Below are positions 1,483 through 24,000 of a DNA stretch of 24,000 nucleotides, piece after piece. Both the position numbers and the translations under genes were made by a program. Under the pieces are notes generated by a model. It did not search any database. It worked only from the letters and a program-made list of their open reading frames with translations, and was not told where the DNA came from. The stretch comes from Rhodocyclales bacterium GT-UBC. Lineage in GTDB: Bacteria; Pseudomonadota; Gammaproteobacteria; Burkholderiales; Rhodocyclaceae. Location of the stretch: the NCBI GenBank assembly GCA_003583745.1, contig QXPY01000003.1:84052-108051 (forward strand), read 5' to 3'. The first letter of the stretch is position 1; each line of letters opens with the position of its first letter.

Positions 1483-1510
1483 CGATTCTTGTCTGGGCGC
1501 TGCTTATCGG

Positions 1511-2244
<734 letters not shown>

Positions 2245-2248
<4 letters not shown>

Positions 2249-3709: not shown

Positions 3710-3893
3710 GGGCGTACCTCGGAAATTTGACGGGATTATGGCACAGGGGCCAAAGATGGAATAGAAATTGCAGAGTTTGCAGAGCTGGTGTAAGCCGCGG
3801 CCAGGAACAAACGATGCTAAGCCGGCAGCAATATCCGGGAAAAGCACGGAAACACGCGGTATATTCTCTGGCTCGCCGTTTCCCGCCCCGGAG

Positions 3894-3913
3894 CACTGGG
3901 TATAAATACAGTA
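3894..3913 (-). promoter_or_regulatory. Putative LexA (SOS) box overlapping a recA promoter
   Basis: The plus strand reads CACTGGGTATAAATACAGTA, which matches TACTGTATATATATACAGTA at 16/20 positions (CTGG-N8-ACAG core). On the minus strand a -35-like TTGCCA (3936-3931) is followed by 17 nt and then TACTGT (3913-3908), so the box overlaps the -10. The site lies about 190 nt upstream of the recA ATG. Confidence 0.5.
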
Positions 3914-3965
3914 CATTTACTGTACGGGCTTGGCAAGCAGATTCTCAATCCATGCCCGATCGCCC

Positions 3966-4622
3966 ATGTCCATCCCCTACACGCCGCCACCCGATAATGG
4001 CCTGACTGTGCTCTTCGCCGACGCCAGCCTGCTCGTCGTCAACAAGCCGGCCGGCCTGCTCTCGGTGCCCGGGCGGGGGGACGACAAGCAGGATTGCCTG
4101 GCCAGCCGGGTTCAGGCCGAATACCCGGATGCGTTGATCGTGCATCGCCTCGACATGTCCACCTCCGGCCTGCTGGTACTGGCCCGGGGCGAAGCCATGC
4201 AAAGCGAGATCAACCGTCTGTTTCGCGAACGAGCCGTGGACAAGCGCTACCTGGCCGTGGTCGACGGCATGCTGGCAGAGGAGGGCGGCGAAATCGACCT
4301 GCCGCTCATCTGCGACTGGCCGAATCGCCCCCGGCAGAAGGTCGATCACGACATCGGCAAGCGCTCACTGACCCGCTTCACCAGGCTGGATGTCGATGAG
4401 GCGAGCCAAACGACACGCGTCGCCCTGGAACCGATCACCGGCCGTTCGCACCAGTTGCGGGTACATATGGCCGCGCTTGGTCACCCCATCCTCGGCGACG
4501 AACTCTATGGCGGCCCGGCCGAACACAAGGCACCGCGCCTGCTGCTGCACGCCATGGATCTCGCTTTCGTACACCCCTTGAGCGGCGAGGCGCTGGCTTT
4601 CCACTGTCCACCCGATTTCTAG
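3966..4622 (+). CDS. rluA: Pseudouridine synthase, RluA type
   Basis: Strongly colinear with E. coli RluA as I remember it: VVNKPAGLLSVPGR, catalytic HRLDMSTSG, LPLICDWPNRPRQKV, ITGRSHQLRVHMAALGHPILGD, PRLLLHA. The ORF track starts at a TTG at 3930; the ATG at 3966 fits the family N-terminus better. Confidence 0.87.
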   Translation: MSIPYTPPPDNGLTVLFADASLLVVNKPAGLLSVPGRGDDKQDCLASRVQAEYPDALIVHRLDMSTSGLLVLARGEAMQSEINRLFRERAVDKRYLAVVDGMLAEEGGEIDLPLICDWPNRPRQKVDHDIGKRSLTRFTRLDVDEASQTTRVALEPITGRSHQLRVHMAALGHPILGDELYGGPAEHKAPRLLLHAMDLAFVHPLSGEALAFHCPPDF

Positions 4623-4739
4623 CCTGCGAACGGGAAGCCGACTACGCGAAATTCTTGCAGTCGGGGCTGCGCCTGCTGCAGCGCAATAACCTTATAATTC
4701 CCGCGTTTTCAACCCCTTGCCCCGGTCGACCGCGCCAAA

Positions 4740-6278: not shown

Positions 6279-6298
6279 GTCGCCGCCCGAGATAAGGG

Positions 6299-6327
6299 CT
6301 GACTCGGCCGGCGTTAGGCCCTAGAAT
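6299..6327 (+). promoter_or_regulatory. Putative sigma-70 promoter giving a leaderless transcript for the VanZ-like gene
   Basis: -35-like CTGACT (6299-6304), 17-nt spacer, -10 TAGAAT (6322-6327). The ATG at 6334 lies 7 nt after the -10 and no Shine-Dalgarno sequence is present. Confidence 0.3.
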
Positions 6328-7340
6328 CAAGACATGACCGAACACGGCCGTGGCCCCATCCTGCTCGCCCGTTATCTCGCGCTGGCTTGGTGTGGGCTGG
6401 TGATCTACGGCAGCCTGCACCCGTTTTCCGGCTGGCGGGATACCGGCGTTTCCCCCTTCGCCTTCCTTGAGGGCGGCTGGCCGCGTTACTGGACCGTTTT
6501 CGACCTGGTGACCAATGTCGCCGTCTATGTCCCGCTCGGCTTTTTCCTGACCCTGGCCATCAGCCGCGTTCCGGGCCGCTATACCGCCCCCATTTTGGCC
6601 GTACTGTTTGCCGGCGGTGTCAGCTTCGGCTTGGAAAGCCTGCAAACCTGGCTCCCGTCACGCGTCCCGTCCAATCTCGATCTCGCCTGCAACACGCTGG
6701 GCGGGCTGGGCGGCGCGCTCTGGGCGCAAGTCGTCGGACCGCGCGTCTTCGCCCGCATCGCCGCCCTCGAACACCGGCTGATCGCCCCGGTACCGCACGC
6801 CGAACTCGGCCTGACCCTGCTCGGCATCTGGCTACTCGTCCCGTTGTCGCCGGAAACCCTGCTTTTCGGGGCCGGCGACCTGCGCCAGGCGCTCGGGCTG
6901 TCCGGCGCCGTACCCTTCGTCGCCGAAAGCTTCGTCGTCATCGAGGCCAGCATCACGGCGCTCAATGCCATCGCGGTCGGTCTCATCGTCCGCCTGCTCA
7001 CCGCCCGCCTGCTCTGGGCCTATGTCGTCGTGCCACTGTTCCTGCTGCTTGGCCTGGTCGTCCGGACACTGGCCACCGCCATCCTGGTCAATCCCGGCGA
7101 AGCCCTGGCCTGGCTGACGCCGGGCGCCGAAATGGGGCTGCTCATCGCCGGCCTCTTTCTCGCCGTGGCCATCGCCCTGCCGGCCACGCCCCGCCTGATG
7201 TTCGCCGCGCTGGCGCTGATGGCCGGTTGCGTACTGGTCAACCTGGCACCGCCTAACCCGTATTCGGTGGCTGCGCTGGCCACCTGGCGGCAGGGGCACT
7301 TCCTGAATTTCAACGGCCTGACCCGATTGGTGGCAACACT

Positions 7341-10400: not shown

Positions 10401-11039
10401 ATGAAAGCACCGGAAGAGAAGATCGTCGTTGCCGGCCCGGTCGGCAACATCGACGTCATCATGGAGCGCCCGGACGCACCGCGCGGTATCGCGCTGATCG
10501 CCCACCCACACCCGATGGGCGGCGGCGCCAATACCAACAAGGTCGCCTATACCCTGGCCCGCACCTTCGCCAGCCTCGGCTATGCCGCCTTCCGCCCGAA
10601 TTTCCGTGGCGTCGGCGGCACCGAAGGCGAGCATGACGAAGGCATCGGCGAGACCGAGGACCTGCTGGCCGTGCTGGAAGAAGCCAAGCGCCGTTGCGGC
10701 GACCTGCCGGTGGCCCTGGCCGGCTTCTCCTTCGGCGCCTACTGCCAGACCCGCGTCGCCAAGCGCTTGGTCGAAGCCGGGCATCCGGCCCAGCGCCTGG
10801 TCCTGGTCGGCACCGCCGCCGGCCATGTCGAGGGCAGCCGCCAGTACGACACCGAAGCCGTGCCGCACGACACCATCGTCATCCACGGTGCCGAAGACAC
10901 GCTGGTCCCGCCTTCGAACGTCTATGCCTGGGCCTTGCCGCTCGACCTGCCGGTCATCATGGTGCCGGGCGCCGACCACTTCTTCCATCGCCGCCTGCAT
11001 CTGATCCGCGACATCATTACCCGCGCATGGCGACACTGA
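10401..11039 (+). CDS. Small alpha/beta-fold hydrolase (COG2945-like)
   Basis: 212 aa with a nucleophile elbow in LAGFSFGAY, IALIAHPHPMGGG, and C-terminal GADHFF. Starts 5 nt after the ferredoxin stop. Confidence 0.75.
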   Translation: MKAPEEKIVVAGPVGNIDVIMERPDAPRGIALIAHPHPMGGGANTNKVAYTLARTFASLGYAAFRPNFRGVGGTEGEHDEGIGETEDLLAVLEEAKRRCGDLPVALAGFSFGAYCQTRVAKRLVEAGHPAQRLVLVGTAAGHVEGSRQYDTEAVPHDTIVIHGAEDTLVPPSNVYAWALPLDLPVIMVPGADHFFHRRLHLIRDIITRAWRH

Positions 11040-11086
11040 ACGTCTCCAAGCTGCGCAAGGTCTATGGCGGCAGCTCCGCAAAATAA
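11027..11086 (+). pseudogene. 19-codon 5' stump of an ABC-transporter ATPase gene
   Basis: ATG at 11027 overlaps the hydrolase stop and encodes MATLNVSKLRKVYGGSSAK*. The first 15 residues parallel [12 protein letters not shown] of the intact ABC ATPase at 20670, including a 22-nt identical stretch. After that stretch the sequence diverges and stops. Confidence 0.55.
11051..11072 (+). repeat. Left copy of a 22-bp perfect direct repeat CTGCGCAAGGTCTATGGCGGCA
   Basis: Identical to 20718-20739. The 15 nt upstream are also 11/15 identical between copies. Sequence downstream of the repeat is unrelated. Confidence 0.9.
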
Positions 11087-11181
11087 GCCTCGGCATGAAT
11101 TCACTCGCAGTTGGTGAGGAGCTGGCTGCGATTTCAACCGCGGGCTCTTGAGCTTTCCTTCAAGAAAGGAACGAAGCGGCC

Positions 11182-11268
11182 TTACCCTCTTCTGGTGTCA
11201 GCTGTTTCACACGCAATCAACATTACCGATCCGGAGACGGCTAATTTCCCGATCATCCTGTTACTCAT
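11182..11268 (-). CDS. Speculative 28-codon mini-ORF with a lipobox
   Basis: Encodes MSNRMIGKLAVSGSVMLIAC|ETADTRRG*, with LIAC fitting the lipobox pattern. It lies 38 nt downstream of the acylase stop on the same strand. There is no convincing Shine-Dalgarno sequence, and it may be a chance ORF or the remnant of a lipoprotein gene. Confidence 0.15.
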   Translation of the reverse strand: MSNRMIGKLAVSGSVMLIACETADTRRG

Positions 11269-11305
11269 GGATGCGGGGGGGCACGACGGTCGGCGCCTCT
11301 GCGCT

Positions 11306-13498
11306 TCAGCGTTCAAAACTGAAGGCGAAACGCTCACCTTGGCGCCAGCGATGTAAATGCTTTTTCAGGAAGACGCCGAAGGGGTTGCCGCTGCTGGGCA
11401 TGTTGGCCAGGTAGGGATTGATCGCACCAGGGGCGAGATCGAAGACCATCTTGAAACTGGTGCCGAAGCTGTATGAACTGCCCCCACCGCCACCTTGGCC
11501 GCTGGTCAGGAAGTCGCAATTGCGGCGCAAGGCCGGGATTGTCTCGCGCGATCCGCCGTCGTAAGGATGCGAGGCGGAGAGTAGGCGACGCAGCAGGGGA
11601 TGGCGGCGCAGGGTGTGGCGATAATCGACGCGCGGAGGCTCGCTGTTACCGGTGCAGACCGAACGATAGGCGTCGCCGACGATGACTGCCACGGAAGCCG
11701 GCAGCGGCCAGTCGGCATCCGGCTCAAACACGATGGCCATGATATTCCAGCGATGCGCCGGCCACATGTCGAGGTAGCGCACGGCCAAGGGAAGCGACAG
11801 TTCGGACGAGAGAACGCGCAGACAGATGGCTTCGACCCAGCGCTCGAAGAGCAGCGATGGCCCGACGATGCGGGTATCCCCGCGCCACCCGGCGAGCGAC
11901 GAACCGGCCTGTGTCGAGGCGTCGAGCAGGGCCCATAGTCTGGGCATCCAGGTTGCGGCGAAGAGGTCGACGCGGTCATCCTGGATCGCCACGAAGCTGG
12001 CCGCGTCGTGCTGCGCCGTCGCGTCGAGCAGTTCGCGGATGCGCCAGGCCCGCGAAGGTGGGTGCCAGCGGTTGGAGATGTAGGGGGCCGGGATGAAATG
12101 CGTCGAATACTGATTGGCGTACAGGGCGACATCGTCGGGCGGGTTGAACTGGCTCGGCATGTCGTCGAAGGGCACATAGCCGCGCCAATCCCAGCGCGCC
12201 TCGGCGAGCGGCAGGAGCAGGCTGCCCGCTGCTTCGAGACCCTTTTCGCGCGCCGGTAGCAGGCCATAGACCTGCGTACCGATATTGTTCTCGCGGTCGG
12301 CATAAGCCGCGACACCGGGGGCGTTCTGCAAGCGCGCCAGCGCCGCGCGAAACTCCGGCCAGTTGCTGGCGCAATTGAGGGCGTACAGGCTGACCGAGCC
12401 GAGGCCGCGATCGAGCGCTGGCCAGCGCAGGAACAGGCCGAGGCCGTTACGTTCGAGCAGCATTTGCCCACCGGCGAAACCGTAGCTGCGATGGACCTCG
12501 CCCTTGCCTCGGCGTAGGCCGATTCCGCTTTCCCGACAGTCCAGCACCTCCCAACCGCGGAAAGTACGGACGCGCCTCCCGGCGAGATCCACCTCGCCCA
12601 CGAACAGATCCTGATTGTCCATCATCACGCCGGTCATACCCCAGGCGATGTCTCGGTTACGCCCGATGACGATGCCCGGTGCGCCGGGGAAATTTGAACC
12701 GAAAACGTCGAGTTTTCCGGCTGACCGCAGATGGAAGAAAAGATTGAAGCCGGGGCTGACCAAGCCCATGTGCGGATCGCTGCCGAGCAGGGGAAATCCG
12801 GATTTCGTCCGTTGCCCGCGCACCGCGAAGACATTGGAGCCGATATCCGGCGATTCCAGGCCAAGTTTGTCCAGTCCGCTGCGCGCCGAAACCAGCAGTT
12901 CCTCCAGCGCCGTGCCGAATTCATTGGCCGCGCCGGCCGGCAGGGCCGGGTGGGTCTGTCCGGCCTCGTCCATGCTCGAAAACAGGCACGCCGCCCGCTG
13001 CGTGCCCAGGGCCGAGGTCACCAGGCTGTGATAAAGCTCGAACTGCCAGGCCGAATTGATGAAATATTTGAGATGCGCCACCAGGTAGACGTCGACCAGG
13101 CTGAACGCCTGCGGACGATAGCCGAGGGCGATGAATTCGGCGGGCAGGATTTTCGTCTCGACCAGGGCCTGGTTGATGCCCTCCACGTAGGCTCGCAAAT
13201 GGCTGCGCTCGGCTGCGTTGTCCGGATCGTCGACGGCCCGCTCGGCCAGTCTGCGCAAGTCCAGGCTGCGCTGAAAGCGGTCGGTCGCCAGCGACGCCGT
13301 GCCCAAAACTTCGCTCAGCGTACCGCTGGCCAGGCGACGGGTCAGGTCGAGCTGCCAGAGCCGCAGGCGTCCGGTGGCGTAGCCCTGGGCGTGATAGACG
13401 GCGGTATCGCTATCGCCCTCGATGCTCACCAGTTGCGTGTTGGGGAGCGTGATCGTGGCCTTGCCCCAGGCGCTCCGCAGGGAGATTCGCCGCTTCAT
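11306..13498 (-). CDS. Penicillin-acylase (peptidase S45) family Ntn hydrolase without a signal peptide
   Basis: Family N-terminal region (YHAQGYATGRLRLWQLDLTRRLASGTLSEVLG...DRF) and a probable autoprocessing site G|SNVFAV with the Ser codon at 12838-12836, followed by LLGSDPHMG. The ORF track extends to 13891, but that stretch is Arg/Ala-rich overlap with the upstream SDR gene. The ATG at 13498 overlaps the SDR stop (ATGA) and gives 730 aa starting MKRRISLRSAWGKATITLPN, with no hydrophobic signal. Confidence 0.85.
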   Translation of the reverse strand: MKRRISLRSAWGKATITLPNTQLVSIEGDSDTAVYHAQGYATGRLRLWQLDLTRRLASGTLSEVLGTASLATDRFQRSLDLRRLAERAVDDPDNAAERSHLRAYVEGINQALVETKILPAEFIALGYRPQAFSLVDVYLVAHLKYFINSAWQFELYHSLVTSALGTQRAACLFSSMDEAGQTHPALPAGAANEFGTALEELLVSARSGLDKLGLESPDIGSNVFAVRGQRTKSGFPLLGSDPHMGLVSPGFNLFFHLRSAGKLDVFGSNFPGAPGIVIGRNRDIAWGMTGVMMDNQDLFVGEVDLAGRRVRTFRGWEVLDCRESGIGLRRGKGEVHRSYGFAGGQMLLERNGLGLFLRWPALDRGLGSVSLYALNCASNWPEFRAALARLQNAPGVAAYADRENNIGTQVYGLLPAREKGLEAAGSLLLPLAEARWDWRGYVPFDDMPSQFNPPDDVALYANQYSTHFIPAPYISNRWHPPSRAWRIRELLDATAQHDAASFVAIQDDRVDLFAATWMPRLWALLDASTQAGSSLAGWRGDTRIVGPSLLFERWVEAICLRVLSSELSLPLAVRYLDMWPAHRWNIMAIVFEPDADWPLPASVAVIVGDAYRSVCTGNSEPPRVDYRHTLRRHPLLRRLLSASHPYDGGSRETIPALRRNCDFLTSGQGGGGGSSYSFGTSFKMVFDLAPGAINPYLANMPSSGNPFGVFLKKHLHRWRQGERFAFSFER

Positions 13499-14481
13499 GC
13501 GCCCTGGCTCTCGCTCGCCTCGGGCAGCAGCGTCCGAACGTACTCGTCGAAACGCTCGCCGAAAGTCGAACAATGATCCTGCCAGGGCCAACCCAATTCG
13601 GACTCGGCTCGCGTGCTGCTGTACAGATAGCTGCTGCCGTCCATGACCTGCAAGGCTTCCCTCGACAAGGGCAGACGAACGCCCAGCGGTCGTAGGGCAT
13701 CGCAGATTCGCGCCGGCCAGCGCAATGATGCGGGCAGCACCTTTTTCGGCAGCGGCAGCCCGGCCACCGCCGCCGCGCGCTCGATCAATTGCGCCATGCC
13801 GACCGTTTCCCCGGTCAGCAGATAGTTCCGCCCGATAACGCCGTGCTCCAGCACGCGCCGCAAGCCATCGCAGACGGCATCGACCGGGCACAGCTGGAAG
13901 CGGCTCTCGCTGACCACCTGCAGGGGCAGCTTGCCGTGCACGAATTGGCCGAGCGCCTGGGCCAGGTCGCTTTGGTCGCCGGGCCCGAAAATGCCGCCGG
14001 GAATGGCGATAATGACGGGCGCCCCACGTTGTTGCATCGCTTCGGCCAGGCCATGGCCGACGTGTTTCGTCTGCTCGTAGAACGAGCGGAAGTGCCCGTT
14101 GTGACGGCTGCTTTCATCTCCCAGACCGCCCTCCGTTTCGCCAAGGGCGGCGGTGCTGCTGACATGAATGATGCGAGGTACCCCGGCACGCCATGCCGCG
14201 TAGAGGACTTGGCGCGTCGCTTCGATATTCGCTGCCGCCATCTCACTCCGGTCGACGCCACCGATCCGGTAACGCGCCGCCAGATGAATCACCGCATCGC
14301 AAGAGGCCAGATCCGCCTGCCAGCCACCGGGCGTTTCGAGCTTGGCCGGGACAAACTGAGCCGGCAGATCGACCGGCGCGCCGGGCCGAACGACGGCCAG
14401 CACCTCATGGCCGGCGGCGCTCAGGTGTCTTGTCAGATGGCGGCCGACAAAGCCGTTGGCCCCGGTCAGAAAAATTTTCAT
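13495..14481 (-). CDS. Extended SDR (NAD-dependent epimerase/dehydratase/reductase family)
   Basis: Starts MKIFLTGANGFVGRHL (Rossmann GxxGxxG) at 14481, overlapping the LuxC-like stop (ATGA). Contains a YEQTK catalytic Y-x3-K. About 328 aa. Confidence 0.85.
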   Translation of the reverse strand: MKIFLTGANGFVGRHLTRHLSAAGHEVLAVVRPGAPVDLPAQFVPAKLETPGGWQADLASCDAVIHLAARYRIGGVDRSEMAAANIEATRQVLYAAWRAGVPRIIHVSSTAALGETEGGLGDESSRHNGHFRSFYEQTKHVGHGLAEAMQQRGAPVIIAIPGGIFGPGDQSDLAQALGQFVHGKLPLQVVSESRFQLCPVDAVCDGLRRVLEHGVIGRNYLLTGETVGMAQLIERAAAVAGLPLPKKVLPASLRWPARICDALRPLGVRLPLSREALQVMDGSSYLYSSTRAESELGWPWQDHCSTFGERFDEYVRTLLPEASESQGA

Positions 14482-15566
14482 GGTGTCGTGTCGCAACTGA
14501 TAAAACGCACCCATTGCGCCAGCTCCCACTGGCCGTCGTGCGGCGCGGTCAACGGGCGTTCGTGCATGCGCCCGAGGCGGCAGCGGTGATACACCGGCAC
14601 ATCGTCGGGGAATTCGGCTGATACGGCGTCCGATGCCGGCCAGATGCCGAAGGTCTGCAAAATGGGCGCCAGCATCGCCGAGCCGGCGACGATCAGGCGG
14701 AACCCGCGGGGCAACCAGTTGGCAGTGTCCATGGCCGAAATGGAAACGCCCCAGCCGGTTTCCGCATTGACCTCAAGCTTGACGGCCTCGCCCAGCCGTG
14801 CCAGCAGCGCCAATTCGCGCGCTTTGAGCAACTGGCGCAAGCGAATTTCCTCGGGAAGCGACGGCAAGTTGGCAAGCCTCGCCACCAGGGCCGCAAATAC
14901 GGCCTTCGCCGTGTCATCGTCCGGCACCAGAACGAACTGCGGCGAACTGCAAACGTTTTGCATGAACAGGCACGTATCGCGGATCAGCGCATCGATACAG
15001 GCGTTCTGCAAGGCGGCTGACGCCGGCCACTCGGCTATGCCGGCGCCGCTCATCTGCGGGCCGTATTCGATGAGGCGCACACCCGGTGCCGCGACCTGCC
15101 GATAATGCCGGATCAGGTCGGCGCTGCCGGCCATGAGAACGGCATCGACGGCGGTCAGCAGTTCGTCGTCCCTTTGCGACAGGCTATCCCAGTCGGCAAT
15201 CCGGCAGGCATCGTCGTTCCAGCCCAGTGCGTCGCGCAATGCCAGGAGCGCTGGCTGGCTGCTGCGCGACTTCAGCGTTAGGCGGTTGCCGGTCAGTGCT
15301 GCCGCCACCAGCGCAGCAATCACGCCGAGATGGTCGTTTTCGCTGATCACCGCCAGCACGTGCCCAAGGGGTCGCCATGAGCGGTCGCCGAGGTCGGCGT
15401 TCATTTTTGCGGTGAGTACCTTCTCATCGGCCAGCATCCTGACCCGCTGGCGACAGAATTCCGCCGTCGCCACATCGGCCACCGGCCAGTCATCCTGCCA
15501 ACCCTGGAGGCAGAGGCGCAGGGCACTGGCCACCTCGGCCGGCGAACGCCTGAAATCGACGGTCAT
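14478..15566 (-). CDS. LuxC-like acyl-CoA (acyl-protein) reductase
   Basis: 362 aa that aligns by eye with Photorhabdus/Vibrio LuxC. [34 protein letters not shown] matches [41 protein letters not shown] matches DQRACFSAQ, which holds the catalytic Cys. There is a C-terminal HDG motif. It is shorter than the ~480-aa canonical LuxC. Confidence 0.72.
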   Translation of the reverse strand: [362 protein letters not shown]

Positions 15567-16612
15567 GCCGCCGCAGAAGCAGCCTGCGCCGCGCAGGTCG
15601 CCGACGGATCACTGGCGCGTCCGAGGAATTCCAGCCAGGGGCGCGCCTTGCCACAGGCACAGCCACTCCCCATGCGGCCGAGGTCTTCGCTCAGCAGATC
15701 GTGGCTCGGTAGCGAGGCGAAGAAGGGATTCTGCAGGCGGATCAGGCCGCTTTCGCCGGGCGCGGCCGGCGCGCCGTCGGCCCGCACGATCTCCAGCCGC
15801 GAATAGCGCGGGATATGAAAGCGGCCGTGCGGGCAACTGATGTAATGCAGCGGATGTTCGGTCATGCCGAAAATATCCCGAATATCGACCTTTGCCGCGC
15901 CGCCCAACGCCTCGCCGAGACGGGCCATGATCTGCGGGCGGTCCATTTTCCGCGTCATGCCTTTCCAGCCGCCGCCGGTCAGGCCACGCACCATGTTGCG
16001 GAAGGGTAGCGGCGTTTGTGGCGCACTCAGTGCCAAATACTCGAAATGCACGGTCAACCCGAAAATAAAGCAAAAATCGCCATCCTTCGCCCAGCGCGCC
16101 AAGGTTTCCCAAGCCAGTTCAGGCTGAAAGCGTCCGCTGTCATCGACGGCGAAGACGATGTCGGCACTCGGCGCACATGCCGTGAAGCGCAGGAAGCTCG
16201 TCGCGTAACCGGCTTGCGGTGCCCGCCGGGGATCGGGCGAGAGCAGCAGGAAGCGGGCGGGATGCTGACTGACCATGCCCTGGCGATAAAAAATCTGGCG
16301 CATGCCGGCCTCGATGCGCCGCATGCTGGCTGCGTCGAAAAAGACCGACGCCGGACCGTTTTTTCCCGTACCCGAACTCGACAGCCACACGCCTTCGCCC
16401 TCGACCGGCGTCCCCAATTCGCAGCGCTTGAACAGTCCAACCGGGATCAGTGGCCGCTGTTCGCCTTCCCAAAGCGCGGCGTAGGCCGGGTTGCGCGCAC
16501 GGTGCCAGGCATCCGCCTCGGCCATGGCGGCATTGAAGAGAGCGTCGTCGGCCGCCCCGGCATAGGGGTCGTCCAGTAGGCTGAGTTGGTCGATGCTTGA
16601 CGGCGTATTCAT
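15563..16612 (-). CDS. LuxE-like acyl-protein synthetase (ANL/PaaK-like)
   Basis: 349 aa. LSSSGTGKNG matches FTSSGTNG of LuxE. LTGGGWK matches ITGGGWK. IRDIFGMTEHPL matches IRDIFNQVELNT. The C-terminal Cys (SATCAA) lies where the acylated Cys of LuxE sits. ATGA overlaps with both neighbours. Confidence 0.75.
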   Translation of the reverse strand: MNTPSSIDQLSLLDDPYAGAADDALFNAAMAEADAWHRARNPAYAALWEGEQRPLIPVGLFKRCELGTPVEGEGVWLSSSGTGKNGPASVFFDAASMRRIEAGMRQIFYRQGMVSQHPARFLLLSPDPRRAPQAGYATSFLRFTACAPSADIVFAVDDSGRFQPELAWETLARWAKDGDFCFIFGLTVHFEYLALSAPQTPLPFRNMVRGLTGGGWKGMTRKMDRPQIMARLGEALGGAAKVDIRDIFGMTEHPLHYISCPHGRFHIPRYSRLEIVRADGAPAAPGESGLIRLQNPFFASLPSHDLLSEDLGRMGSGCACGKARPWLEFLGRASDPSATCAAQAASAAA

Positions 16613-17826
16613 GGAAGCGTGTTGAACCCGTTGAAAGTCTGTTCGGAAAGTCTGGCCATGTCGCGCACCAGGACGCGCAAGTTGGGACCGTGGTTGATCA
16701 GCGCCCGATGGTCATGCGCCTGGCTGATCACGACCGCGTTGTCGCCCCAGGGCACGGCGTCAGACGAGGCGACCAAGGGGCCGCACGGCGCTGCACTGAC
16801 ATGGCGCAGCGGAAAATGGTCGTCGCCAATTTCGAGGCAACGTGCCAGAAGGTCGGGCGCGCGTCGGCGAATCGCCTCGACCGTCGCCGCCACCGGTTCG
16901 CCGTCATGGCCGCTGACGGCCGTGCTGACGGCCTGGTTGGCAGCATTGACGAACCAGGTTTGCGGCACCGACTGCTCCGCGGCGTTCGTTCCGGAAATGG
17001 CCTGTGAAAACTCCCTGGCCTGGGCCAGCTGCCCTGCCAATCCGGCGTAATGGCAGGGCAGACCGACGTCCCTCCAGCTTCTGGCATCGAAAATGTCGAA
17101 GCCGGCAACCGGCTCGCCAGTTCGATCCATCAAGCGCGATTCGGCCGGCAGGAGTTGATACACCGACGGACAACTGGCCACAGCTTCGGCGCTGAAGCCG
17201 TGGAAGCGCCGGGTGGCCGGCCAATAGCCATTCTGCAGCATGTTGATGGTGTTCCACGAGCCGAGCCAGGGCGGGCCGAAGGCATACCACTTGGCGACCG
17301 ATTCACGCATTTCCGGACGGCATTCCCTGAGCCAGTAGCGAATGGCCATGTTGGCGACGGACTGGCCAATGATGATGATTTTCTGGTCCGCGCCGAAGCG
17401 CGATTGCAAGCGCTCGATTTCAATTTCGATCAGCCGGCCGAGGCGCCGGTAGTCGGCCCGCCAGTCGTAGGCAAGAAAGAAGAGGTCGCAATCCAACCGA
17501 TAGCCCAGACCGACTTCGAGCACGTTGACCACGTCGCGGGTGACGATGCTGCTGAACAAGCCCGGCACGATCTGGAATTCATACAGGGTCTGGTTGGCGA
17601 GCACGCGCCAGGGATCGTCATGGTCGACCCCGTAGTCGGCCTCGTGCGGCTGACGAAAGAGCAGGCCGCGGTAATCGCCCCAAATGTATTCGCCGCACTG
17701 CCGATCGAAGAGCTTGGTCCCGAACAGCCCGGGAATGTAGAGCACAGGCAGCCGGCGAGCCGGCGACTGGCGGGATGAACGCAAAACGACGCGCGAGCGC
17801 AGCCGGGAGTACGCCTTGGCAAGCAT
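16609..17826 (-). CDS. LCAT-family (lecithin:cholesterol acyltransferase-like) alpha/beta hydrolase
   Basis: 405 aa with IPGLFGTKL, the family hallmark YDWR (FLAYDWRADY), and the nucleophile elbow IIIIGQSVAN at the position of the GHSLG motif. Confidence 0.7.
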   Translation of the reverse strand: MLAKAYSRLRSRVVLRSSRQSPARRLPVLYIPGLFGTKLFDRQCGEYIWGDYRGLLFRQPHEADYGVDHDDPWRVLANQTLYEFQIVPGLFSSIVTRDVVNVLEVGLGYRLDCDLFFLAYDWRADYRRLGRLIEIEIERLQSRFGADQKIIIIGQSVANMAIRYWLRECRPEMRESVAKWYAFGPPWLGSWNTINMLQNGYWPATRRFHGFSAEAVASCPSVYQLLPAESRLMDRTGEPVAGFDIFDARSWRDVGLPCHYAGLAGQLAQAREFSQAISGTNAAEQSVPQTWFVNAANQAVSTAVSGHDGEPVAATVEAIRRRAPDLLARCLEIGDDHFPLRHVSAAPCGPLVASSDAVPWGDNAVVISQAHDHRALINHGPNLRVLVRDMARLSEQTFNGFNTLP

Positions 17827-17833
17827 TCAGCGA

Positions 17834-19249
17834 TCAGCGGGGCTGCAGCGGGGCCGGCGGTACGTCGCAGCTTCCGGATTGCGATTGCTCGGTAAGGACC
17901 GTCGGGAAATGTGCCCGGTCAAACACTTCCAGCACGCGAACATCCTTGTCCGCATCGAGATCGATGCGCATGGCCACGACCCGCGCACTCGGCTTCGATA
18001 CCAGGAATCGCAGGCAGGACGATTGCCCACCCATGATTTCCTTGCCATCGGCATCGAGGAAAACATAGCGGATGGGGTTTTCCGTGGCTTGCTCGATGTG
18101 TGCCGCGCCAATCGCCCCACGGAAAACGTGGGTCAGCGAACGACCGGGCTTGCCGGCAAACGCGACCGGCTTGCTTGTTTGGGGCAGGTTCACGATAGGT
18201 AAAACGTGCCCGCAGTGGCCGCATCGATTGCCGTCGAGATGCAACGCAATGCCTTCGCCACTGCGCCGGATCACAACCTCACGGCACTGAGGGCAACAGG
18301 TGTCGACGCTTACGGTATTGGCGGTATTGCCCAAATAGACAAATTTCACGCCGGCATCAAGCGCTTGGCGCCGGGCCTGTTCCAGAAAATTCACATCGGT
18401 TCGCGCCACCTGCGTATACAGGTAATCGGGGTGGAAACGCACATAGTGCAAGGGAATCTCGTCGTCCAGGTTGTCCAGCATCCAGTCGCAGACCCGGCGA
18501 GCCTGTTCGAGGTTGTCGTTGCGCCCGGTGATGCATAGGTTGGACACTTCGAGGTGCGGTCCGCGGCCGCCCTGGCGCGCCCGGTAAACCTGCTTGATAC
18601 CTTCGAGCACTGGCTGCAACTCGCTGCGCGTGAATTTGCGGTAGAAGTCGGCATCCAGCGATTTCAGTGAAATGCTGAAAATGTCCATGACCTCGAGCAA
18701 CTCGTCGATGGCCTCCGGCCCGATGGAAAAGGCTGACTTGTATAGATTGCGCAAACCGGCCTGACGGGCGAGGCGCGCCGTGTCCATGACGAACTCTTGC
18801 CAGACCACCGGATCGTTATAGGTCCACGACAGGATGCCGATGCCGTGACGCACTGCGTAATCGACGACCTGCTCCGGCGTGTAGCGGGCAATATCCTGCT
18901 CACGAACCAGCCTCGCCTGACTGGTCTGCCAGTTCTGGCAGAAGTCGCACTTAAGCATGCAGCCGATGTTGCCGAGCGACAGGATCGGAGCGCCCGGAGC
19001 GTAATGGTAAACCGCCTCGGATTCGATGCGCTCTTCGGTCATCGGCACCGATTTGCCGTAATTCAGCGTCAGGAGCTCGCCGTTGCGGTTGTAACGCACG
19101 CCGCAGAAGCCGAGGCCGCCCTCGGGGATGCGGCACTTGCGGGGTGACAGGTGGCATTCGACTCGGCCGTTAGGCAGCGCCTTCCATAGGCTGGCAGGAT
19201 GCATTCCGTCCTGGAGGGACGCGGTCAAGGTGTGGAGTTTGTCGGACAT
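17834..19249 (-). CDS. Radical SAM enzyme, AmmeMemoRadiSam/PFL-activase-like, with an extra C-terminal domain
   Basis: 471 aa with the CX3CX2C motif in GNIGCMLKCDFCQNW and a family-like N-terminus (LWKALPNGRVEC...GFCGVRYNRNGELLTLNYG). Also LHYVRFHPDY, YLGN and a Cys4 ribbon (CCPQC...CGHCG). About 115 further residues follow with no motif I recognise. Confidence 0.85.
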   Translation of the reverse strand: MSDKLHTLTASLQDGMHPASLWKALPNGRVECHLSPRKCRIPEGGLGFCGVRYNRNGELLTLNYGKSVPMTEERIESEAVYHYAPGAPILSLGNIGCMLKCDFCQNWQTSQARLVREQDIARYTPEQVVDYAVRHGIGILSWTYNDPVVWQEFVMDTARLARQAGLRNLYKSAFSIGPEAIDELLEVMDIFSISLKSLDADFYRKFTRSELQPVLEGIKQVYRARQGGRGPHLEVSNLCITGRNDNLEQARRVCDWMLDNLDDEIPLHYVRFHPDYLYTQVARTDVNFLEQARRQALDAGVKFVYLGNTANTVSVDTCCPQCREVVIRRSGEGIALHLDGNRCGHCGHVLPIVNLPQTSKPVAFAGKPGRSLTHVFRGAIGAAHIEQATENPIRYVFLDADGKEIMGGQSSCLRFLVSKPSARVVAMRIDLDADKDVRVLEVFDRAHFPTVLTEQSQSGSCDVPPAPLQPR

Positions 19250-19251
19250 CG

Positions 19252-20223
19252 TTATCGGGACTCAATCAATTTTCCCTGCGCGGCGAGAACCATGCCGACG
19301 TAGGTGTCATGTAGAAATGTCATAACCGTCTGCTGTGCAGCGGGGAATGGGGCATTCTGGGCACCGATGCGAACAAAGCCGGCGCCCTTCTGCAAACCGA
19401 CCGTCAGCTTTTCATCAGTGCGATAGCCACGCCGCATGACGTCCTGGAAAAGCGGGTGCGTATCCAACCCGAAGAGCAGCAGGTCGTGCCGGATCAGTTC
19501 TTTCGGCGTCATGCTGCTCAGCATGGCCATTTCAAAATGCCAGTCTTCTTCCTGCAATGCCTTATCGAGATTGCGCTTCGGATCGGTCTTCAGGGACAGC
19601 GGCAGTTCAAGCCGGGCAGTGGCCACCGTGTATTTGAACGGCCCGATGCCCAGCGAAATGTCGAGTGCCGGCGACGGGTCGGCCGCCGTACGAATATCGC
19701 GAACTTGGGCAAAAGTATCGATCAGCCGTGACGAGAACGGCGGGGCGACAATCTGGGCCTGAGCCTGGGCCGGCGTCAGTACGACCTGCTTTTCTTCGCC
19801 GATCGTCACCGTCCACCCATCCACCTCCGCCCTATCCGGCGAACCGGCACCCGGCACCGTGTAGGTGCTCAGGCGGTTGTGCCAACCATTGCTATCCTTG
19901 CTGATGACGAGATGGATCAGGTAGGGCCGCGACCGCGTTCCCCACTGACCTTTTGCATGTAGCAGGACATCGGCGACGATGGCACTTTCGCCATACACAT
20001 GATTGTTGGCAATGCGAATCTCGCGCCGAGCTTCATCAACACTGGCCACGGTATGTGCGTCATCGATTACCAGCCGATTCGACACCCCTGCCTGCTGCGT
20101 TCCCGCCGCCGTCGGAAGCCGCATGATGAGCGGCCCCGTTAGTTCCGCGGCCGACACATCCAAAGTTACCATCAAGCCCACTCCCAACCCCAAAAGCCCT
20201 ACCAGATTCAGAAACACGGTCAC
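19252..20223 (-). CDS. Hypothetical protein, probably exported or membrane-anchored
   Basis: 323-aa ORF from a GTG at 20223, ending 2 nt before the radical SAM ATG. The N-terminus MTVFLNLVGLLGLGVGLMVTLDVSAAE is signal/anchor-like (VSA|AE) but has no basic n-region. An alternative ATG at residue 18 (20172) is preceded by GGGAG and would remove the hydrophobic segment. I recognise no family. Confidence 0.6.
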   Translation of the reverse strand: MTVFLNLVGLLGLGVGLMVTLDVSAAELTGPLIMRLPTAAGTQQAGVSNRLVIDDAHTVASVDEARREIRIANNHVYGESAIVADVLLHAKGQWGTRSRPYLIHLVISKDSNGWHNRLSTYTVPGAGSPDRAEVDGWTVTIGEEKQVVLTPAQAQAQIVAPPFSSRLIDTFAQVRDIRTAADPSPALDISLGIGPFKYTVATARLELPLSLKTDPKRNLDKALQEEDWHFEMAMLSSMTPKELIRHDLLLFGLDTHPLFQDVMRRGYRTDEKLTVGLQKGAGFVRIGAQNAPFPAAQQTVMTFLHDTYVGMVLAAQGKLIESR

Positions 20224-20256
20224 ACTGCACGAAAATTCAATTGGAATAATGACAAC

Positions 20257-20285
20257 ATTCTAACGAGCAAGCCCGCCGAGCACAA
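20257..20285 (-). promoter_or_regulatory. Putative sigma-70 promoter of the seven-gene operon
   Basis: Minus strand: TTGTGC (20285-20280), 17-nt spacer, TAGAAT (20262-20257), 34 nt upstream of the GTG at 20223. It lies in an AT-richer spacer. Confidence 0.25.
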
Positions 20286-20669
20286 CGAACAATCGCCGTG
20301 TTGCGACAACGAAGACGAATTCGAGGCGGCGTGGCGTGCCAACGGCAAATCTCAGGGTCTGCCGGAAAATCTGGCCAAATCGAAATTTCGAGGACTGGCT
20401 GCGGCTCAGACCGTGCAAAAACGCCGCCTGACAGGAATCCTGGAAGCGCCGTTCGGCTATAGCGGAAGACAGACCGAGAGAAATAGAAGGTGGCGGATTG
20501 GCCGTCAGGCTGCCCGGCCATGCCTTCATCAACGCCACTACGCTCAGGAGATTCACGTATTGTTCCGACTAGCGGTAAAGTATGTCTCCCTCGACACGAT
20601 GCAATAACTGGTAAGACCAAAATTACCTGAAACTCTGGCATATCGTGCTCAATCGACAGAATACTCCCA

Positions 20670-21611
20670 ATGCCCATGGCCCATCCCAATACAGCTTGTC
20701 CGCTGATTGTTTCCAACCTGCGCAAGGTCTATGGCGGCAACGAAGTCGTTGCCGGGCTTTCGTTCGCCGTCCAGCCCGGCACCTGTTTCGGCCTGCTCGG
20801 GCCGAACGGGGCCGGCAAGACGACGACGCTGCGCCTCTGCCTCGGCCTCACTGCACCGGATAGCGGCGAGATCAGCCTGGCCGGCCGGCCGATTCCCGGC
20901 GAAGCCCAGCAGGCCCGGGCCAAGGTCGGCGTCGTGCCGCAGTTCGACAACCTCGACCCCGATTTCACCGCCAGCGAAAACCTGCTCGTCTTCGGCCGCT
21001 ATTTCGGCCTCAAGGAAGCCGAAGTCAAGGCGCGCATTCCGCAATTGCTCGAATTCGCCGGCCTCACCGGCAAGGCCGATGCCCGCATCGCGACCCTCTC
21101 CGGCGGCATGAAGCGCCGGTTGACCCTGGCCCGCGCCCTGGTCAACGACCCCGATATCGTCTTCCTCGACGAACCGACCACCGGTCTCGACCCGCAAGCC
21201 CGCCACCTGATCTGGGACCGCCTGAAACAACTCAAGTCGGCCGGCAAGACGCTGATCCTGACCACCCATTTCATGGACGAGGCCGAACGCCTGTGCGACC
21301 GGCTGATCGTCATCGACCACGGCAAGAAGATCACCGAAGGCAGCCCGCGCCAGTTGATCGCCGAGCACATCGAACCCCAGGTTGTCGAAGTCTTCGACGA
21401 AGGCAGCCACGACCTGCAAGGTTTCGTCGAAGCCAACCGCCAACTGGCCGAACGCGTCGAAACCAGCGGCGAAACCGCCTTCTTCTACTGCCGCGAACCG
21501 CGCCCGCTGCTGGCCAAACTGGCCGAAGCCGACGGCCTGCGCTACGTGCACCGCGCCTCCAACCTGGAAGACGTCTTCATCAAGCTGACCGGTCGGGAAC
21601 TGCGGGATTGA
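20670..21611 (+). CDS. ABC transporter ATP-binding protein, ABC-2/NodI-DrrA type
   Basis: 313 aa with Walker [11 protein letters not shown]-loop VVPQFDNL, signature [15 protein letters not shown], Walker [13 protein letters not shown] and H-loop TTHFMDEAE. No Shine-Dalgarno sequence precedes either ATG (20670 or 20676). An in-frame TGA at 20628 prevents any upstream extension. Confidence 0.9.
20718..20739 (+). repeat. Right copy of the 22-bp perfect direct repeat CTGCGCAAGGTCTATGGCGGCA
   Basis: Identical to 11051-11072. It lies within codons 17-24 of the intact ABC ATPase gene. The two copies are 9667 bp apart (start to start). Confidence 0.9.
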
Positions 21612-22200
21612 GCGCCGGGCCGGCCTCCGGCCAATCGGCTTCGAACACCCCGGCATAGCGGAACACCTCGCCGAAAAGCGGGTGGGTCAGGCGGAAATCC
21701 ATCGCGAAATGGCACTCGTCGATGGCCGCCTCGACGATCGTCGTATGCCCGAGCAGCAGCCATTCCGGGATCGGCAAGACCAGTGGCCCAAGCTTGACGA
21801 CGAAGCGCACACCCCGGTAATGCAGGCGGCCGTCCTCGACGTAAGGCGCCATCTGCAGGCCACAGACCGGATTGACGTACTCGATCACCTGACCCGGCCC
21901 GGCCGCCACCCAGAAGCTGTTGAAGCGAATGAGCCGGCCATCGGGGAAGACGATGCGCCGCCGCCAGTACTGGCGCTCGCCGACCACCTATTTCTCGACC
22001 CGGGTGGCGACGCCCCGGCCACGGCGATGCACCAACGCGCCGACCAGTCGCAGCAGCAAGAGCAGGGGCCACATGAAACGCGGAAATTCGATATCCAGAT
22101 GCCCGATATCGGTGCTCGTCCCGAAGCGGTAATGCGCCTGCAAAGCCGGCGGCAAGCGGTCCCAATCGGCGCCCAGCGCCTGTTGCATGAGGCTTTTCAT
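21580..22200 (-). pseudogene. DUF4166-family gene interrupted by an in-frame TAG
   Basis: ATG at 22200 (MKSLMQQALGADWDRLPPALQAHYR, a typical DUF4166 N-terminus) runs 70 codons to a TAG at 21990-21988. The same frame then continues for 135 codons (VVGERQYWRRRIVFPDG...FRYAGVF). The combined length of about 205 aa fits the family. The start overlaps the DUF2269 stop (ATGA). Confidence 0.7.
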
Positions 22201-22676
22201 GATCCGGCTCCCGGCAGGTGTTTGAAGACCATCAACGCCACGACCAGCAGCATCGAGATGAAGGCCGGCACGCCCAGCCAGAACCAGGCACGCGCCATGC
22301 GCCAATAGGCGGGCGGCAACAGCTGCTGGCGGATGACGGCATCCTCGGCCATTCTCTGCATGCGGATCTGCAACCAGACCACCGGCAGCCAGCAGGCTCC
22401 GGCCAGGCCATACAGCCCCAGGCTGATCGCCACCCAGGGCGTGCTCAGTGGCAGGCCGAGCAGATGGATCATCCACAGGCCGCTCAGAGGCTGGAAAATC
22501 ACCGTCGGCGTGGTGAAGATCCAGTCGGCCAACACCACCTGCCGGTTGGTCGCGGCGATGTGCTGCGGATTGCCTGTGCGGTCGGCCATCCATTTATAGA
22601 AGGCGCTACCCAGCCCGGTGCCGAACAGCAGCACCATGCTGAGGATGTGCATGGTCTTGATCAGGGTATAGCTCAT
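22197..22676 (-). CDS. DUF2269-family integral membrane protein
   Basis: 159 aa from the ATG at 22676 (MSYTLIKTMHILSMVLLFGTGLGSAFY) with four predicted hydrophobic helices. The ORF track extends to 23093, but that part overlaps the SDR gene. ATGA overlaps at both ends. Confidence 0.7.
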   Translation of the reverse strand: MSYTLIKTMHILSMVLLFGTGLGSAFYKWMADRTGNPQHIAATNRQVVLADWIFTTPTVIFQPLSGLWMIHLLGLPLSTPWVAISLGLYGLAGACWLPVVWLQIRMQRMAEDAVIRQQLLPPAYWRMARAWFWLGVPAFISMLLVVALMVFKHLPGAGS

Positions 22677-23539
22677 GATGAACTCCTTGCCATGGCGGCA
22701 TCGCTGAAGAAAAGCCCCGGCTCGACCGGCAAGGGCAGGCGCCCCAGCCAGTTCGCCCAGGGCCGGTAATCGGCCTGGTAGCCGGTCTGCAGCATGTGCA
22801 GGTTTTCCGGCTGCAGCAGGGCGGTGAAATGGCGGCCGATGCGACACGACAACATGGCCAGGGGCAGGGGAATGCGCAGGAAGGGTGCCGGCGGCAGGCC
22901 CTGCGCCTGGCGCATGGTCTGCAACCAGTCGCCGAAAGCGAAGCTTTCGCTGCCCAGGATATCGAGCGAGCGGCGGACATCCGGCGAAACCAGGGCATGC
23001 CGGACGCTGGCCACAACATCGGCGATATGGACCGGCTGGATGGTCTGCCGGCCGTCGCCGGGCACCGGCAGCCAAGGCCAGCGGGCAAGACACATCAACA
23101 ACTCGGCACTGCCGCCGCCCCGCCCGTAGATCAAGGACGGGCGCAGCACGAACCAGTCGAGGTCGAGACGGCGCAAGCCGTCGTCGGCCAGCCCCTTGCT
23201 CCGGTGATAGGCCGAGAATGCCGTGTCGTCGGTACCCAGCGCCGAAATCTGGATCACCCGCCGCACGCCGGCCTCGGCGCAGGCCTGGAACAAGGCAAGC
23301 GGCGCCTGGGCATGCAGGCAGGCGAAGCGCTGTGTCGACGATTCGCCGATGATGCCGACTGCGTTGATCACGACCTCGACCCCCGCCAGATGGGGCAGCC
23401 AGTCGCCGACCGCCAGCATGTCGCGGAAATCGACGCCACTGCGGCGGGAAACCGGGATCACGCGATGCCCTGCGGCGACCAGCGCAGCAGCGACATTGCG
23501 GCCGATGAAGCCGCTGGCACCGGTGAGCAGGATCTTCAT
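22673..23539 (-). CDS. NAD(P)-binding SDR-like protein (NmrA/NDUFA9-like)
   Basis: 288 aa starting MKILLTGASGFIGRNV (Rossmann motif), with YHRSK as Y-x3-K. The start overlaps the upstream ORF stop (ATGA). Confidence 0.85.
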   Translation of the reverse strand: MKILLTGASGFIGRNVAAALVAAGHRVIPVSRRSGVDFRDMLAVGDWLPHLAGVEVVINAVGIIGESSTQRFACLHAQAPLALFQACAEAGVRRVIQISALGTDDTAFSAYHRSKGLADDGLRRLDLDWFVLRPSLIYGRGGGSAELLMCLARWPWLPVPGDGRQTIQPVHIADVVASVRHALVSPDVRRSLDILGSESFAFGDWLQTMRQAQGLPPAPFLRIPLPLAMLSCRIGRHFTALLQPENLHMLQTGYQADYRPWANWLGRLPLPVEPGLFFSDAAMARSSS

Positions 23540-23877
23540 GGCAGGCTCCCCGGTGACGGCACCTCGATGAATTGGCCCAGCCTTTGACCGATCGAGCGCA
23601 GGCCGATCAACAAGCCGCCCAGCGCGGCAAGCAGGGCCAGGCGCAGGCTGTCCAGCGGGTTGCTGAAATGCGAGAACAAATCGACCAGCAGTACCAGCAA
23701 CAGCGGCGCGATCATCAACATCACCCGCGTGTAGCTCAGCCAGAAGGCGGCGGCCTGCTCGTCCGGACAGATGCGACCGAGAATGCTGCGTAACGGACCC
23801 GACAACGTAAAGAGAACGATGCCGCTGGCGGCGATGCTGATCGAAGCGGCGGCAAGCAACTGCAGATAGGCATTCAC
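23536..23877 (-). CDS. Small hydrophobic membrane protein of unknown function
   Basis: Three hydrophobic segments (LLAAASISIAASGIVLFTL, LMIAPLLLVLLV, LALLAALGGLLIGL). The GTG at 23877 is preceded by GGGAG. The ORF track begins at the ATG at 23982, so the start is uncertain. Confidence 0.45.
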   Translation of the reverse strand: MNAYLQLLAAASISIAASGIVLFTLSGPLRSILGRICPDEQAAAFWLSYTRVMLMIAPLLLVLLVDLFSHFSNPLDSLRLALLAALGGLLIGLRSIGQRLGQFIEVPSPGSLP

Positions 23878-24000
23878 GATGGACTCCCGATGGCTATGAG
23901 GAGTCTTCAGTGTGCGCAGCGAGAAGCGCTCAATCTTCCGTTTTGATCGAAACGGAGCATTTTTCGGCTCCGGAATGATCATTCCGGAGCGCGGATCGGG

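Follow-up and report, generated by a model that had tools for sequence, protein, structure and literature searches.

The window analyzed here is the whole 24,000-nucleotide (nt) stretch of contig QXPY01000003.1 of Rhodocyclales bacterium GT-UBC, that is, "Candidatus Dechloromonas occultata". As listed below, an alpha/beta hydrolase gene and a nodI/drrA-type ABC ATPase gene (the ABC gene) of this organism are separated by a large insert, and the beginning of the ABC gene is present on both sides of it as a direct repeat. The insert is about 9.65 kb long and consists of an operon of seven minus-strand genes (the cassette) and of 242 bp (11073–11314) and 428 bp (20290–20717) of insert-specific DNA. 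The original prediction, made from the sequence alone, that the repeats enclose only a seven-gene operon and two non-coding flanks was confirmed. The loci fetched for comparison are referred to by L numbers. The features of the site, apart from the cassette genes, are as follows.

10401–11039, plus strand: alpha/beta hydrolase gene, the conserved left neighbor (Pfam Abhydrolase/Thioesterase; exact protein match RIX48269.1).
11027–11086, plus strand: dead remnant (stump) of the 5′ end of the native ABC gene (MATLNVSKLRKVYGGSSAK*); the ABC start of L098 and L102–L104 is colinear with it.
11036–11072, plus strand: left repeat copy, 37 nt and imperfect, with the perfect 22-mer at 11051–11072 (repeat search).
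11073–11305: left insert-specific flank, non-coding, 55.8% GC, matching L101 only (82%).
20290–20669: right insert-specific spacer, non-coding, matching L087 and L101 only (about 85–86%).
20670–20717, plus strand: new N-terminal leader of the ABC gene from the insert (MAHPNTAC...), with a non-coding evolutionary rate.
20703–20739, plus strand: right repeat copy, 37 nt, with the perfect 22-mer at 20718–20739; its last 28 nt are the native empty-site sequence.
20676–21611, plus strand: intact nodI/drrA-type ABC ATPase gene, native body and new leader (NCBIfam NodI, 464 bits).

It was found that the 22-mer CTGCGCAAGGTCTATGGCGGCA occurs exactly twice in the window, at 11051–11072 and 20718–20739, even when up to two mismatches are allowed. 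None of 100 dinucleotide shuffles matched this pair. A repeat finder extended the repeat beyond the 22-mer to 37 nt with 89% identity (11036–11072 versus 20703–20739). Both copies of the 22-mer are in frame inside ABC N-terminal coding sequence. Judged by eye with a dif-like 28-bp site with XerC and XerD arms in mind, the 22-mer is ordinary ABC coding sequence conserved in the orthologs of L095, L098, and L099. The original prediction had described both copies, their reading frames, and some similarity upstream of them, and was right in these points. The left copy lies in a 19-codon open reading frame (ORF) that runs from ATG 11027 to TAA 11084–11086, with the product MATLNVSKLRKVYGGSSAK*. Its ATG is just 5′ of the hydrolase stop codon (11037–11039), and the two frames overlap. 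In L101, another locus with the insert, the perfect repeat is 26 nt in length versus 22 nt in the window. The left copy of L101 reads TCCAAC, which is the native sequence, and both copies of L101 end with GGCAGC. Thus, AAG in the left copy of the window and AAC after its right copy are later changes, and comparison of the copies suggests that the ancestral perfect repeat was probably 24–26 nt long.

Is there an empty form of this site? An ABC-protein scan of species-representative genomes returned 80 loci. The hydrolase and ABC genes occur together in 49 fetched loci across Betaproteobacteria, most of which have them side by side with nothing in between. Dechloromonas and Azonexus have an ABC start that overlaps the hydrolase stop, and in D. 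hortensis (96% hydrolase amino-acid identity) the two genes are adjacent. The DNA of the relatives aligns to the window up to 11037–11072, resumes at 20714–20718, and ends at about 21610–21623. The decisive empty and occupied loci were found by a 22-mer search of JGI metagenomes and by exact-protein look-up. Four loci from four different samples (L098, L102, L103, and L104), whose flanks are 96–98% identical to the window, have an empty site. Their hydrolase gene is followed immediately by a full-length ABC gene whose start overlaps the hydrolase stop, and the site reads ...GCATGGCGACACTGAACGTCTCCAAC-CTGCGCAAGGTCTATGGCGGCA-ACGAAGTC.... This is the empty site that had been predicted, one residue off. 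L098, L102, and L103 are colinear onward with the downstream genes of the window (DUF4166, DUF2269, and SDR), and a membrane-protein gene further downstream is also colinear in L098 and L102. When the empty sites are aligned with the left and the right side of the window, precisely the 37-nt repeat is covered twice. No native base is missing compared with L098 and L102; instead, 37 nt are duplicated.

The stump is identical to the four empty-site strains at 36 of the 37 repeat bases. The native sequence in the stump ends at 11072–11074, and the insert DNA begins there. L101 has the same stump and the same junction as the window. Since the native ABC start in the four empty sites is short and coupled to the hydrolase gene, the left ORF is the original ABC start, as had been supposed, and the leader of the intact gene came with the insert. 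An insertion bracketed by a repeat derived from its target is almost certain. The reverse assignment was also considered, in which the leader of the intact gene would be a native long-form N-terminus and the stump would be foreign, since the ABC starts of D. hortensis and L092 are longer and uncoupled. It was dropped because L098 and L102–L104, with their 96–98% identity to the window, carry the short coupled form, which equals the stump.

The insertion is not private to this genome. L101, an 809-kb JGI contig, is colinear with the window over 20.6 kb with 92.3% identity and has identical left and right junctions, while L087 has an identical right junction. When the window is compared with L101, the insert shows 92.7% identity; for the backbone the value is 91.8%, with the individual genes forming a mosaic of 85.6–98.1%. 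Since the insert and the backbone are similarly diverged, the insertion is as old as that split. All of the occupied sites (the window, L101, and L087) trace to one event, and the insertion is old, being common to lineages about 8% apart, and polymorphic in the species complex. The old acquisition that had been suspected is supported by these results.

Searches of the seven genes and the flank ORFs with Pfam, NCBIfam, and PHROGs revealed no domain of an integrase, excisionase, transposase, or other recombinase, which agrees with the original prediction. No ORF of the insert or its flanks matched a phage family either. The left-flank ORFs have no Pfam or PHROG match. There are no inverted repeats at the insert ends, and the window has no tRNA or Rfam family. 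The insert does not look like a transposon or an insertion sequence: it has no transposase and no terminal inverted repeats, and the duplication is 22–37 nt versus the 2–14 bp expected for such elements. A promoter scan of the flanks gave no promoter-like site, and a terminator scan gave three terminator-like stems with no clear meaning.

A marked difference in base composition had also been claimed. The flanks are indeed AT-richer (55.8% GC on the left, and 52.5% GC in the intergenic region 20224–20669), but the contrast of the insert as a whole is weak, with 62.6% GC versus 64.1% in the left backbone and 65.1% in the right backbone. The value of 73% given for the flanking ATPase genes is true for only a part of the P-type ATPase gene. 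The GC content of third codon positions is 68–79% in the cassette versus 81–89% in the nearest neighbors, and is 68–74% in rpoN, lptB, and recA of the window. The tetranucleotide correlation between the insert and the backbone is 0.90–0.96, which is a slight difference. Composition as proof of foreign origin was set aside because the contrast is too weak to use; the foreign origin rests on the comparison of loci. In addition, L092 has an identical copy of a 12-mer of the left flank, AGCCTCGGCATG (11086–11097), in the stretch that separates its hydrolase stop from its ABC start. Two other occurrences, at unrelated positions, were found in the 2.8 Mb of fetched loci, and the coincidence is probably due to chance.

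How did the cassette enter this site? The homology at the two junctions is asymmetric. The left copy is native throughout, and its similarity to the native gene stops after GGCGGCA(GC); past 11072, the anchored extension score is 0. In the right copy, the last 28 nt are native, and there are three differences in the preceding 9 nt (CTGATTGTT versus CTGAACGTC), which are common to the window and L101. The similarity in the 15–17 nt upstream of the right perfect repeat is significant, since it was reached by 0 of 500 shuffles for the window and 3 of 500 for L101. Because the homology is one-sided, a single crossover with a circular DNA carrying an ABC-like patch of about 40 nt fits best. Thus, the single crossover with DNA carrying an ABC 5′ fragment, one of the two mechanisms originally proposed, remains the best one, and I favor with moderate confidence the whole account of a single Campbell-type crossover involving circular donor DNA and a homeologous ABC-like patch.

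According to this account, the ABC gene in the ancestor of the "Ca. Dechloromonas occultata"-like lineage would have had its ATG inside the last hydrolase codons, just before the TGA stop. About 9.65 kb of foreign DNA would have arrived, comprising the operon with its own promoter and 242 bp and 428 bp of donor flank. In one integration, a circular form of this DNA would have recombined with the chromosome by a single Campbell-type crossover, using a patch of about 40 nt that resembled ABC codons 4–17 and was identical to the native gene in its last 28 nt, up to the end of the 22-mer; the patch would have stopped where the left junction now lies. The crossover would have duplicated the patch, generating the direct repeat (22–26 bp when perfect, 37 bp when imperfect). 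The hydrolase gene would have kept the native start as an attached stump of 19 codons, and the ABC body would have been fused to the new leader and presumably also to a new promoter in the spacer. Later, the ABC gene would have stayed functional, and the polymorphism of the site would have come about by allele exchange or scarless loss. Recombination between the repeats would give the empty junction ...GTCTCCAAC-CTGCGCAAGGTCTATGGCGGCA-ACGAAGTC... and the predicted circle ...GTTTCCAAC-CTGCGCAAGGTCTATGGCGGCA-GCTCCGCAAAATAAGCC....

Several points weigh against the crossover account. A homology of about 40 nt, 28 of them perfect, is at the lower limit for a RecA-dependent crossover, given the minimal processing segments. 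Neither the plasmid and viral (IMG/VR) collections nor the JGI metagenomes yielded a donor of the spacer or of the ABC-like patch, so the circular intermediate is hypothetical. JGI was covered with a conserved 21-mer of the spacer, and IMG/VR with words from the spacer and the left flank and with the gene 1 protein. The insert-specific stretches of 242 bp and 428 bp match nothing but L101 and L087 (82–86%). The leader 5′ of the 37-nt repeat has no detectable similarity to any ABC N-terminus, and the patch could be a once-perfect duplication that diverged later. Furthermore, the occupied sites do not form a monophyletic group when judged by their flanks. Exactly the same hydrolase protein is encoded beside the occupied site of L101 and the empty sites of L102–L104, and over the 2 kb to the left of the site L101 is 98.5% identical to the empty L103 and 96.2% identical to the occupied window. 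This distribution requires either allele exchange among strains by homologous recombination or scarless loss by recombination between the repeats.

If the patch was once perfect, the insertion may have been illegitimate or replication-based (template switching or staggered-break repair). About 40 nt of the target would then have been duplicated perfectly around foreign DNA that had no ABC-like sequence, and the right copy would later have gained three substitutions (AAC to ATT and GTC to GTT) that adapted it to the leader. The abrupt junction after the left repeat favors this idea, as do the leader 5′ of the repeat, which resembles no ABC gene in formal searches and evolves at a non-coding rate, and the small tandem duplications to which the hydrolase/ABC junction is prone in L090 and L099. 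However, the three changes of the right copy lie within 5 nt, none is found in the next 28 nt, and all are common to the window and L101. Such clustered changes fit a homeologous patch better than drift. I also know of no mechanism that typically yields target duplications of 40 nt. This illegitimate route is a possible but rather unlikely alternative. In the other mechanism originally proposed, site-specific recombination at the 22-mer, the repeat of 22–26 bp would be an att core, a tyrosine recombinase would have acted in trans or have since been lost, and the element would have brought a substitute gene end. It would account for the perfect direct repeats of att-like length at both ends, for an insertion at a gene end with the gene restored by element-borne sequence, and for the partial similarity on one arm alone. 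However, the insert has no recombinase domain, and the site is unused by other elements; there are few small insertions among the 49 hydrolase–ABC loci (in Sulfuritalea and Casimicrobiaceae), none with a stump or a repeat. Elsewhere, the cassette is not bordered by repeats and lacks conserved ends, and the occupied sites all come from a single event. Site-specific integration thus found no support and is improbable. Still harder to believe is that the 9.65-kb unit is an integrase-less "satellite islet" whose repeat is a functional att site and which is moved by a recombinase encoded elsewhere. Such an islet would comprise the operon, a spacer bearing a promoter, and a substitute 5′ end for the target gene. 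If true, its movement into and out of the ABC gene would switch this gene between translational coupling to the hydrolase gene and control by its own promoter.

Two further explanations deny that an insertion took place. The cassette might be ancestral at this site, the "empty" genomes having lost it by deletion between the repeats. Recombination between the repeats restores the native gene scarlessly, and a secondary loss would look like an ancestral empty site; the occupied L101 is also closer to the empty L103 than to the window. On the other hand, the outgroups (Dechloromonas, Azonexus, Propionivibrio, and distant Betaproteobacteria) mostly keep the two genes adjacent, and none has a stump or a flanking repeat. 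The stump requires a pre-existing intact gene, and the cassette is present at other loci in other Dechloromonas-like genomes. I give this explanation hardly any credence: an ancestral cassette for the whole genus is very unlikely, while secondary loss within the species is possible and forms part of the crossover account. As for a chimeric contig joined at the 22-mer by an assembly or binning error, the window does come from a metagenome-assembled genome (MAG). However, the same junctions are present in independent assemblies from other samples (L001 from Logan SRR8188020, L101 from JGI, and L087 from SRR28335226), and these copies have diverged by 6–8%. An artefact is thus ruled out for all practical purposes.

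The single crossover resembles what is known from experiments. In Escherichia coli conjugation, the duplication of a homologous segment is the mark of a single crossover with a recircularized molecule (PMC3240628). Here, too, the homologous segment is present as direct copies at both ends of the insert, the repeat copies would be hybrids of chromosomal and incoming sequence, and the element does not have to encode a recombinase. The right copy differs from the native sequence in the distal 9 nt only, and the left copy is all native. In contrast to those experiments, in which 109–950 bp were duplicated (PMC3240628), the homology here is about 40 nt, and the event is a natural and old one with a presumed circular intermediate. 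The site also bears comparison with a known site-specific system. Phage 21 and e14 insert in the end of the icd gene and carry a substitute end. Similarly, the present insert has flanking direct repeats, its target gene is kept by a diverged incoming gene end, and it is strain-variable. Unlike in phage 21 and e14, there is no integrase, the 5′ end rather than the 3′ end has been replaced, the site is not reused, and the cassette has no defined ends at other loci. The insert shares with genomic islands the flanking direct repeats that duplicate the target and the presence/absence polymorphism with a precise empty site; it has neither an integrase nor a recurrently used att site.

Homology-facilitated illegitimate recombination is another possible parallel, and it has reportedly been proposed for module displacement at the type VI secretion system loci of Vibrio cholerae. 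A short conserved gene segment anchors one side, and the other junction is abrupt and non-homologous, as is the case here. In E. coli, this recombination leads to an insertion plus a deletion (PMC3240628), whereas no recipient DNA has been deleted at the present site and 22–37 nt have been duplicated.

The insertion is of modest interest: it adds a well-resolved case to a known process, the acquisition of an operon without an integrase, probably by short-homology recombination. If the crossover account holds, a whole operon can enter a chromosome without mobility genes when the incoming DNA resembles a conserved gene start over no more than a few dozen bases. The two junctions are preserved here together with an untouched empty site and a 19-codon relic. 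The repeats allow scarless loss in principle, which may explain the polymorphism among strains that are 96–98% identical. The exact junction sequences are usable for strain typing. The cargo, a rare operon, is more intriguing than the insertion itself but poses a question of its own.

What became of the ABC gene? It encodes an ATPase of 311–313 residues with 96% amino-acid identity to the counterparts in L098, L102, and L103. The original prediction that the intact gene has a different N-terminus and no Shine-Dalgarno sequence was correct. The leader is derived from the insert and diverges at a non-coding rate (85% identity between the window and L101), and no GGAG, GAGG, or AGGA was seen by eye within 35 nt 5′ of ATG 20670 or 20676. 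The native ABC start likewise has no Shine-Dalgarno motif. The start codon of the intact gene is a point of correction. The first ATG (20670) is ATA in L101 and L087, and the gene calls begin at the second ATG; thus, ATG 20676 is likely to be the true start. The dN/dS ratio of the ABC gene is 0.03–0.06 versus the empty-site alleles, and that of the hydrolase gene is 0.07. Because of this low ratio, the ABC gene is taken to be under purifying selection and appears to be still functional. With the insertion, the ABC gene lost its translational coupling with the hydrolase gene; the upstream promoters are now 9.65 kb away, behind genes on the opposite strand. Presumably, the spacer carries a new ABC promoter, although a consensus scan had no match. 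The ABC gene has thus survived the loss of its own start and coupling; the incoming DNA supplied its leader and presumably also its promoter.

The seven genes of the cassette and their putative promoter are as follows.

11306–13498, minus strand: gene 7, penicillin-amidase (Ntn-hydrolase) family acylase of 730 residues (Pfam PF01804, E 7e-122).
13495–14514, minus strand: gene 6, NAD-dependent epimerase/dehydratase (SDR), HpnA/OleD-like (Pfam PF01370).
14478–15566, minus strand: gene 5, LuxC-like acyl-CoA reductase (Pfam PF05893, E 4e-18).
15563–16612, minus strand: gene 4, LuxE-like acyl-protein synthetase (Pfam PF04443, E 4e-13).
16609–17826, minus strand: gene 3, LCAT-family alpha/beta hydrolase or acyltransferase (Pfam PF02450, E 1e-10).
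17834–19249, minus strand: gene 2, radical SAM enzyme of the AmmeMemoRadiSam type (NCBIfam TIGR04337, 276 bits versus a cut-off of 220; Pfam PF04055).
19252–20223, minus strand: gene 1, protein of no known family, 306 residues from ATG 20172 or 323 residues from GTG 20223.
20224–20289, minus strand: promoter-like region (TTGTGC, 17 nt, TAGAAT), with the -10 box at 20257–20262.

The window was matched to "Ca. D. occultata" by way of its proteins: the cluster of the acylase includes RIX48270.1 of the same MAG, the next accession after that of the hydrolase, RIX48269.1. "Ca. D. occultata" is known from a MAG of a Mn(III)-reducing enrichment from Lake Matano, and the paper describing it mentions neither an acylase nor LuxC (10.1101/695007). 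Among the matches listed for the acylase, 62 homologs have an E value of 1e-100 or below. Gene 6 scored 153 bits against NCBIfam HpnA, which is under the cut-off of that family. The gene 1 product has no match in Pfam, NCBIfam, PADLOC, or PHROG. It is a rare protein, since a set of 5.8 billion proteins contained only 19 clusters of it. Its AF2 model has a pLDDT of 78. A chalcone-isomerase-like fold was considered for this product, but the matches were weak (best E 0.015, TM 0.26–0.37) and were not used for functional assignment. PADLOC found nothing among the cassette proteins, and a literature search for this gene combination gave no result. From the set of domains, a LuxCDE-like pathway of fatty-acid activation and reduction coupled to an N-acyl amidase would be a reasonable guess for the function of the cargo. 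As for the radical SAM enzyme (17834–19249), neither an AMMECR1-like nor a Memo-like partner was detected in the cassette, its partners there being the LuxC/LuxE-like and LCAT-like enzymes.

As predicted, the cassette is found in other contexts. The seven genes recur as a unit, with 72–90% nucleotide identity, at at least four other loci with unrelated flanks. In a Dechloromonas/Azonexus-like genome (L082, L083, L088, and L089), the cassette has a VWA gene on one side and phaR on the other. It lies among other genes of no known family in L084, L085, and L093, after asmA in L086, and ahead of a DUF5710 gene in L094. No flanking direct repeats above chance and no conserved ends were found at these loci. 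The homology of the cassette to the other loci is limited to the region from 11315 or 11366 to 20079 or 20289, that is, from just past the acylase stop to the promoter-like block, and reaches 20289 in L082, L083, and L088. The operon of LuxC, LuxE, radical SAM, and acylase genes is thereby marked as accessory and horizontally mobile in "Ca. D. occultata" and its relatives.

The promoter-like block (TTGTGC or TTGCAT, 17 nt, TAGAAT) is conserved by eye in the window (20236–20289), L082, L088, and L094. It travels with the cassette to every locus, and the homology between loci stops just upstream of it. The block did not reach the threshold of the promoter scanner. In L082, a prophage-like block (positions 1–7200; LPD38, Terminase_2, and many small ORFs) lies 3–10 kb upstream of the cassette. 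The contig of L094 opens with an apparent tRNA 3′ end (positions 1–30; GGTTCGATCCC...CCACCA). A terminator comes next, about 270 nt before the cassette. This tRNA gene is cut by the contig end and hence was not called by ARAGORN. The tRNA end is a hint that the L094 cassette may sit on a tRNA-linked island.

The hydrolase/ABC stop/start junction, equivalent to 11020–11050 of the window, is highly variable among the relatives (L099, L090, L091, L095, L092, and L002). Small tandem duplications uncouple the two genes: TGGCGGCAC is present twice in L099, and D. hortensis has a copy of about 22 nt. The ABC N-terminus before LRK ranges from 8 to about 17 codons among close relatives.

Downstream of the site, the ABC gene and the DUF4166 gene (21580–22200) are convergent in the window, with a 32-nt overlap. 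The DUF4166 gene has an in-frame TAG on the minus strand (21988–21990), while L098 and L102 have CAG (Gln) at this position; the gene is intact in L102 (206 residues). Thus, the DUF4166 gene of the window is either a nonsense mutant or pseudogene, or reflects a consensus error of the MAG. The ABC-2 permease partner of the ATPase lies outside the window (21580–24000 were examined). The permease gene directly follows the ATPase gene in L005, L008, L010, and L013, while the two are separated by about 1.3 kb in L003, L006, and L007, by 2.6 kb in L090, by 3.8 kb in L002, by 5.5 kb in L004, and by 7.3 kb in L102. The genes that fill this gap are unrelated and mostly on the opposite strand. Since its contents vary in this manner, the gap between the ATPase and permease genes is a second insertion hotspot.

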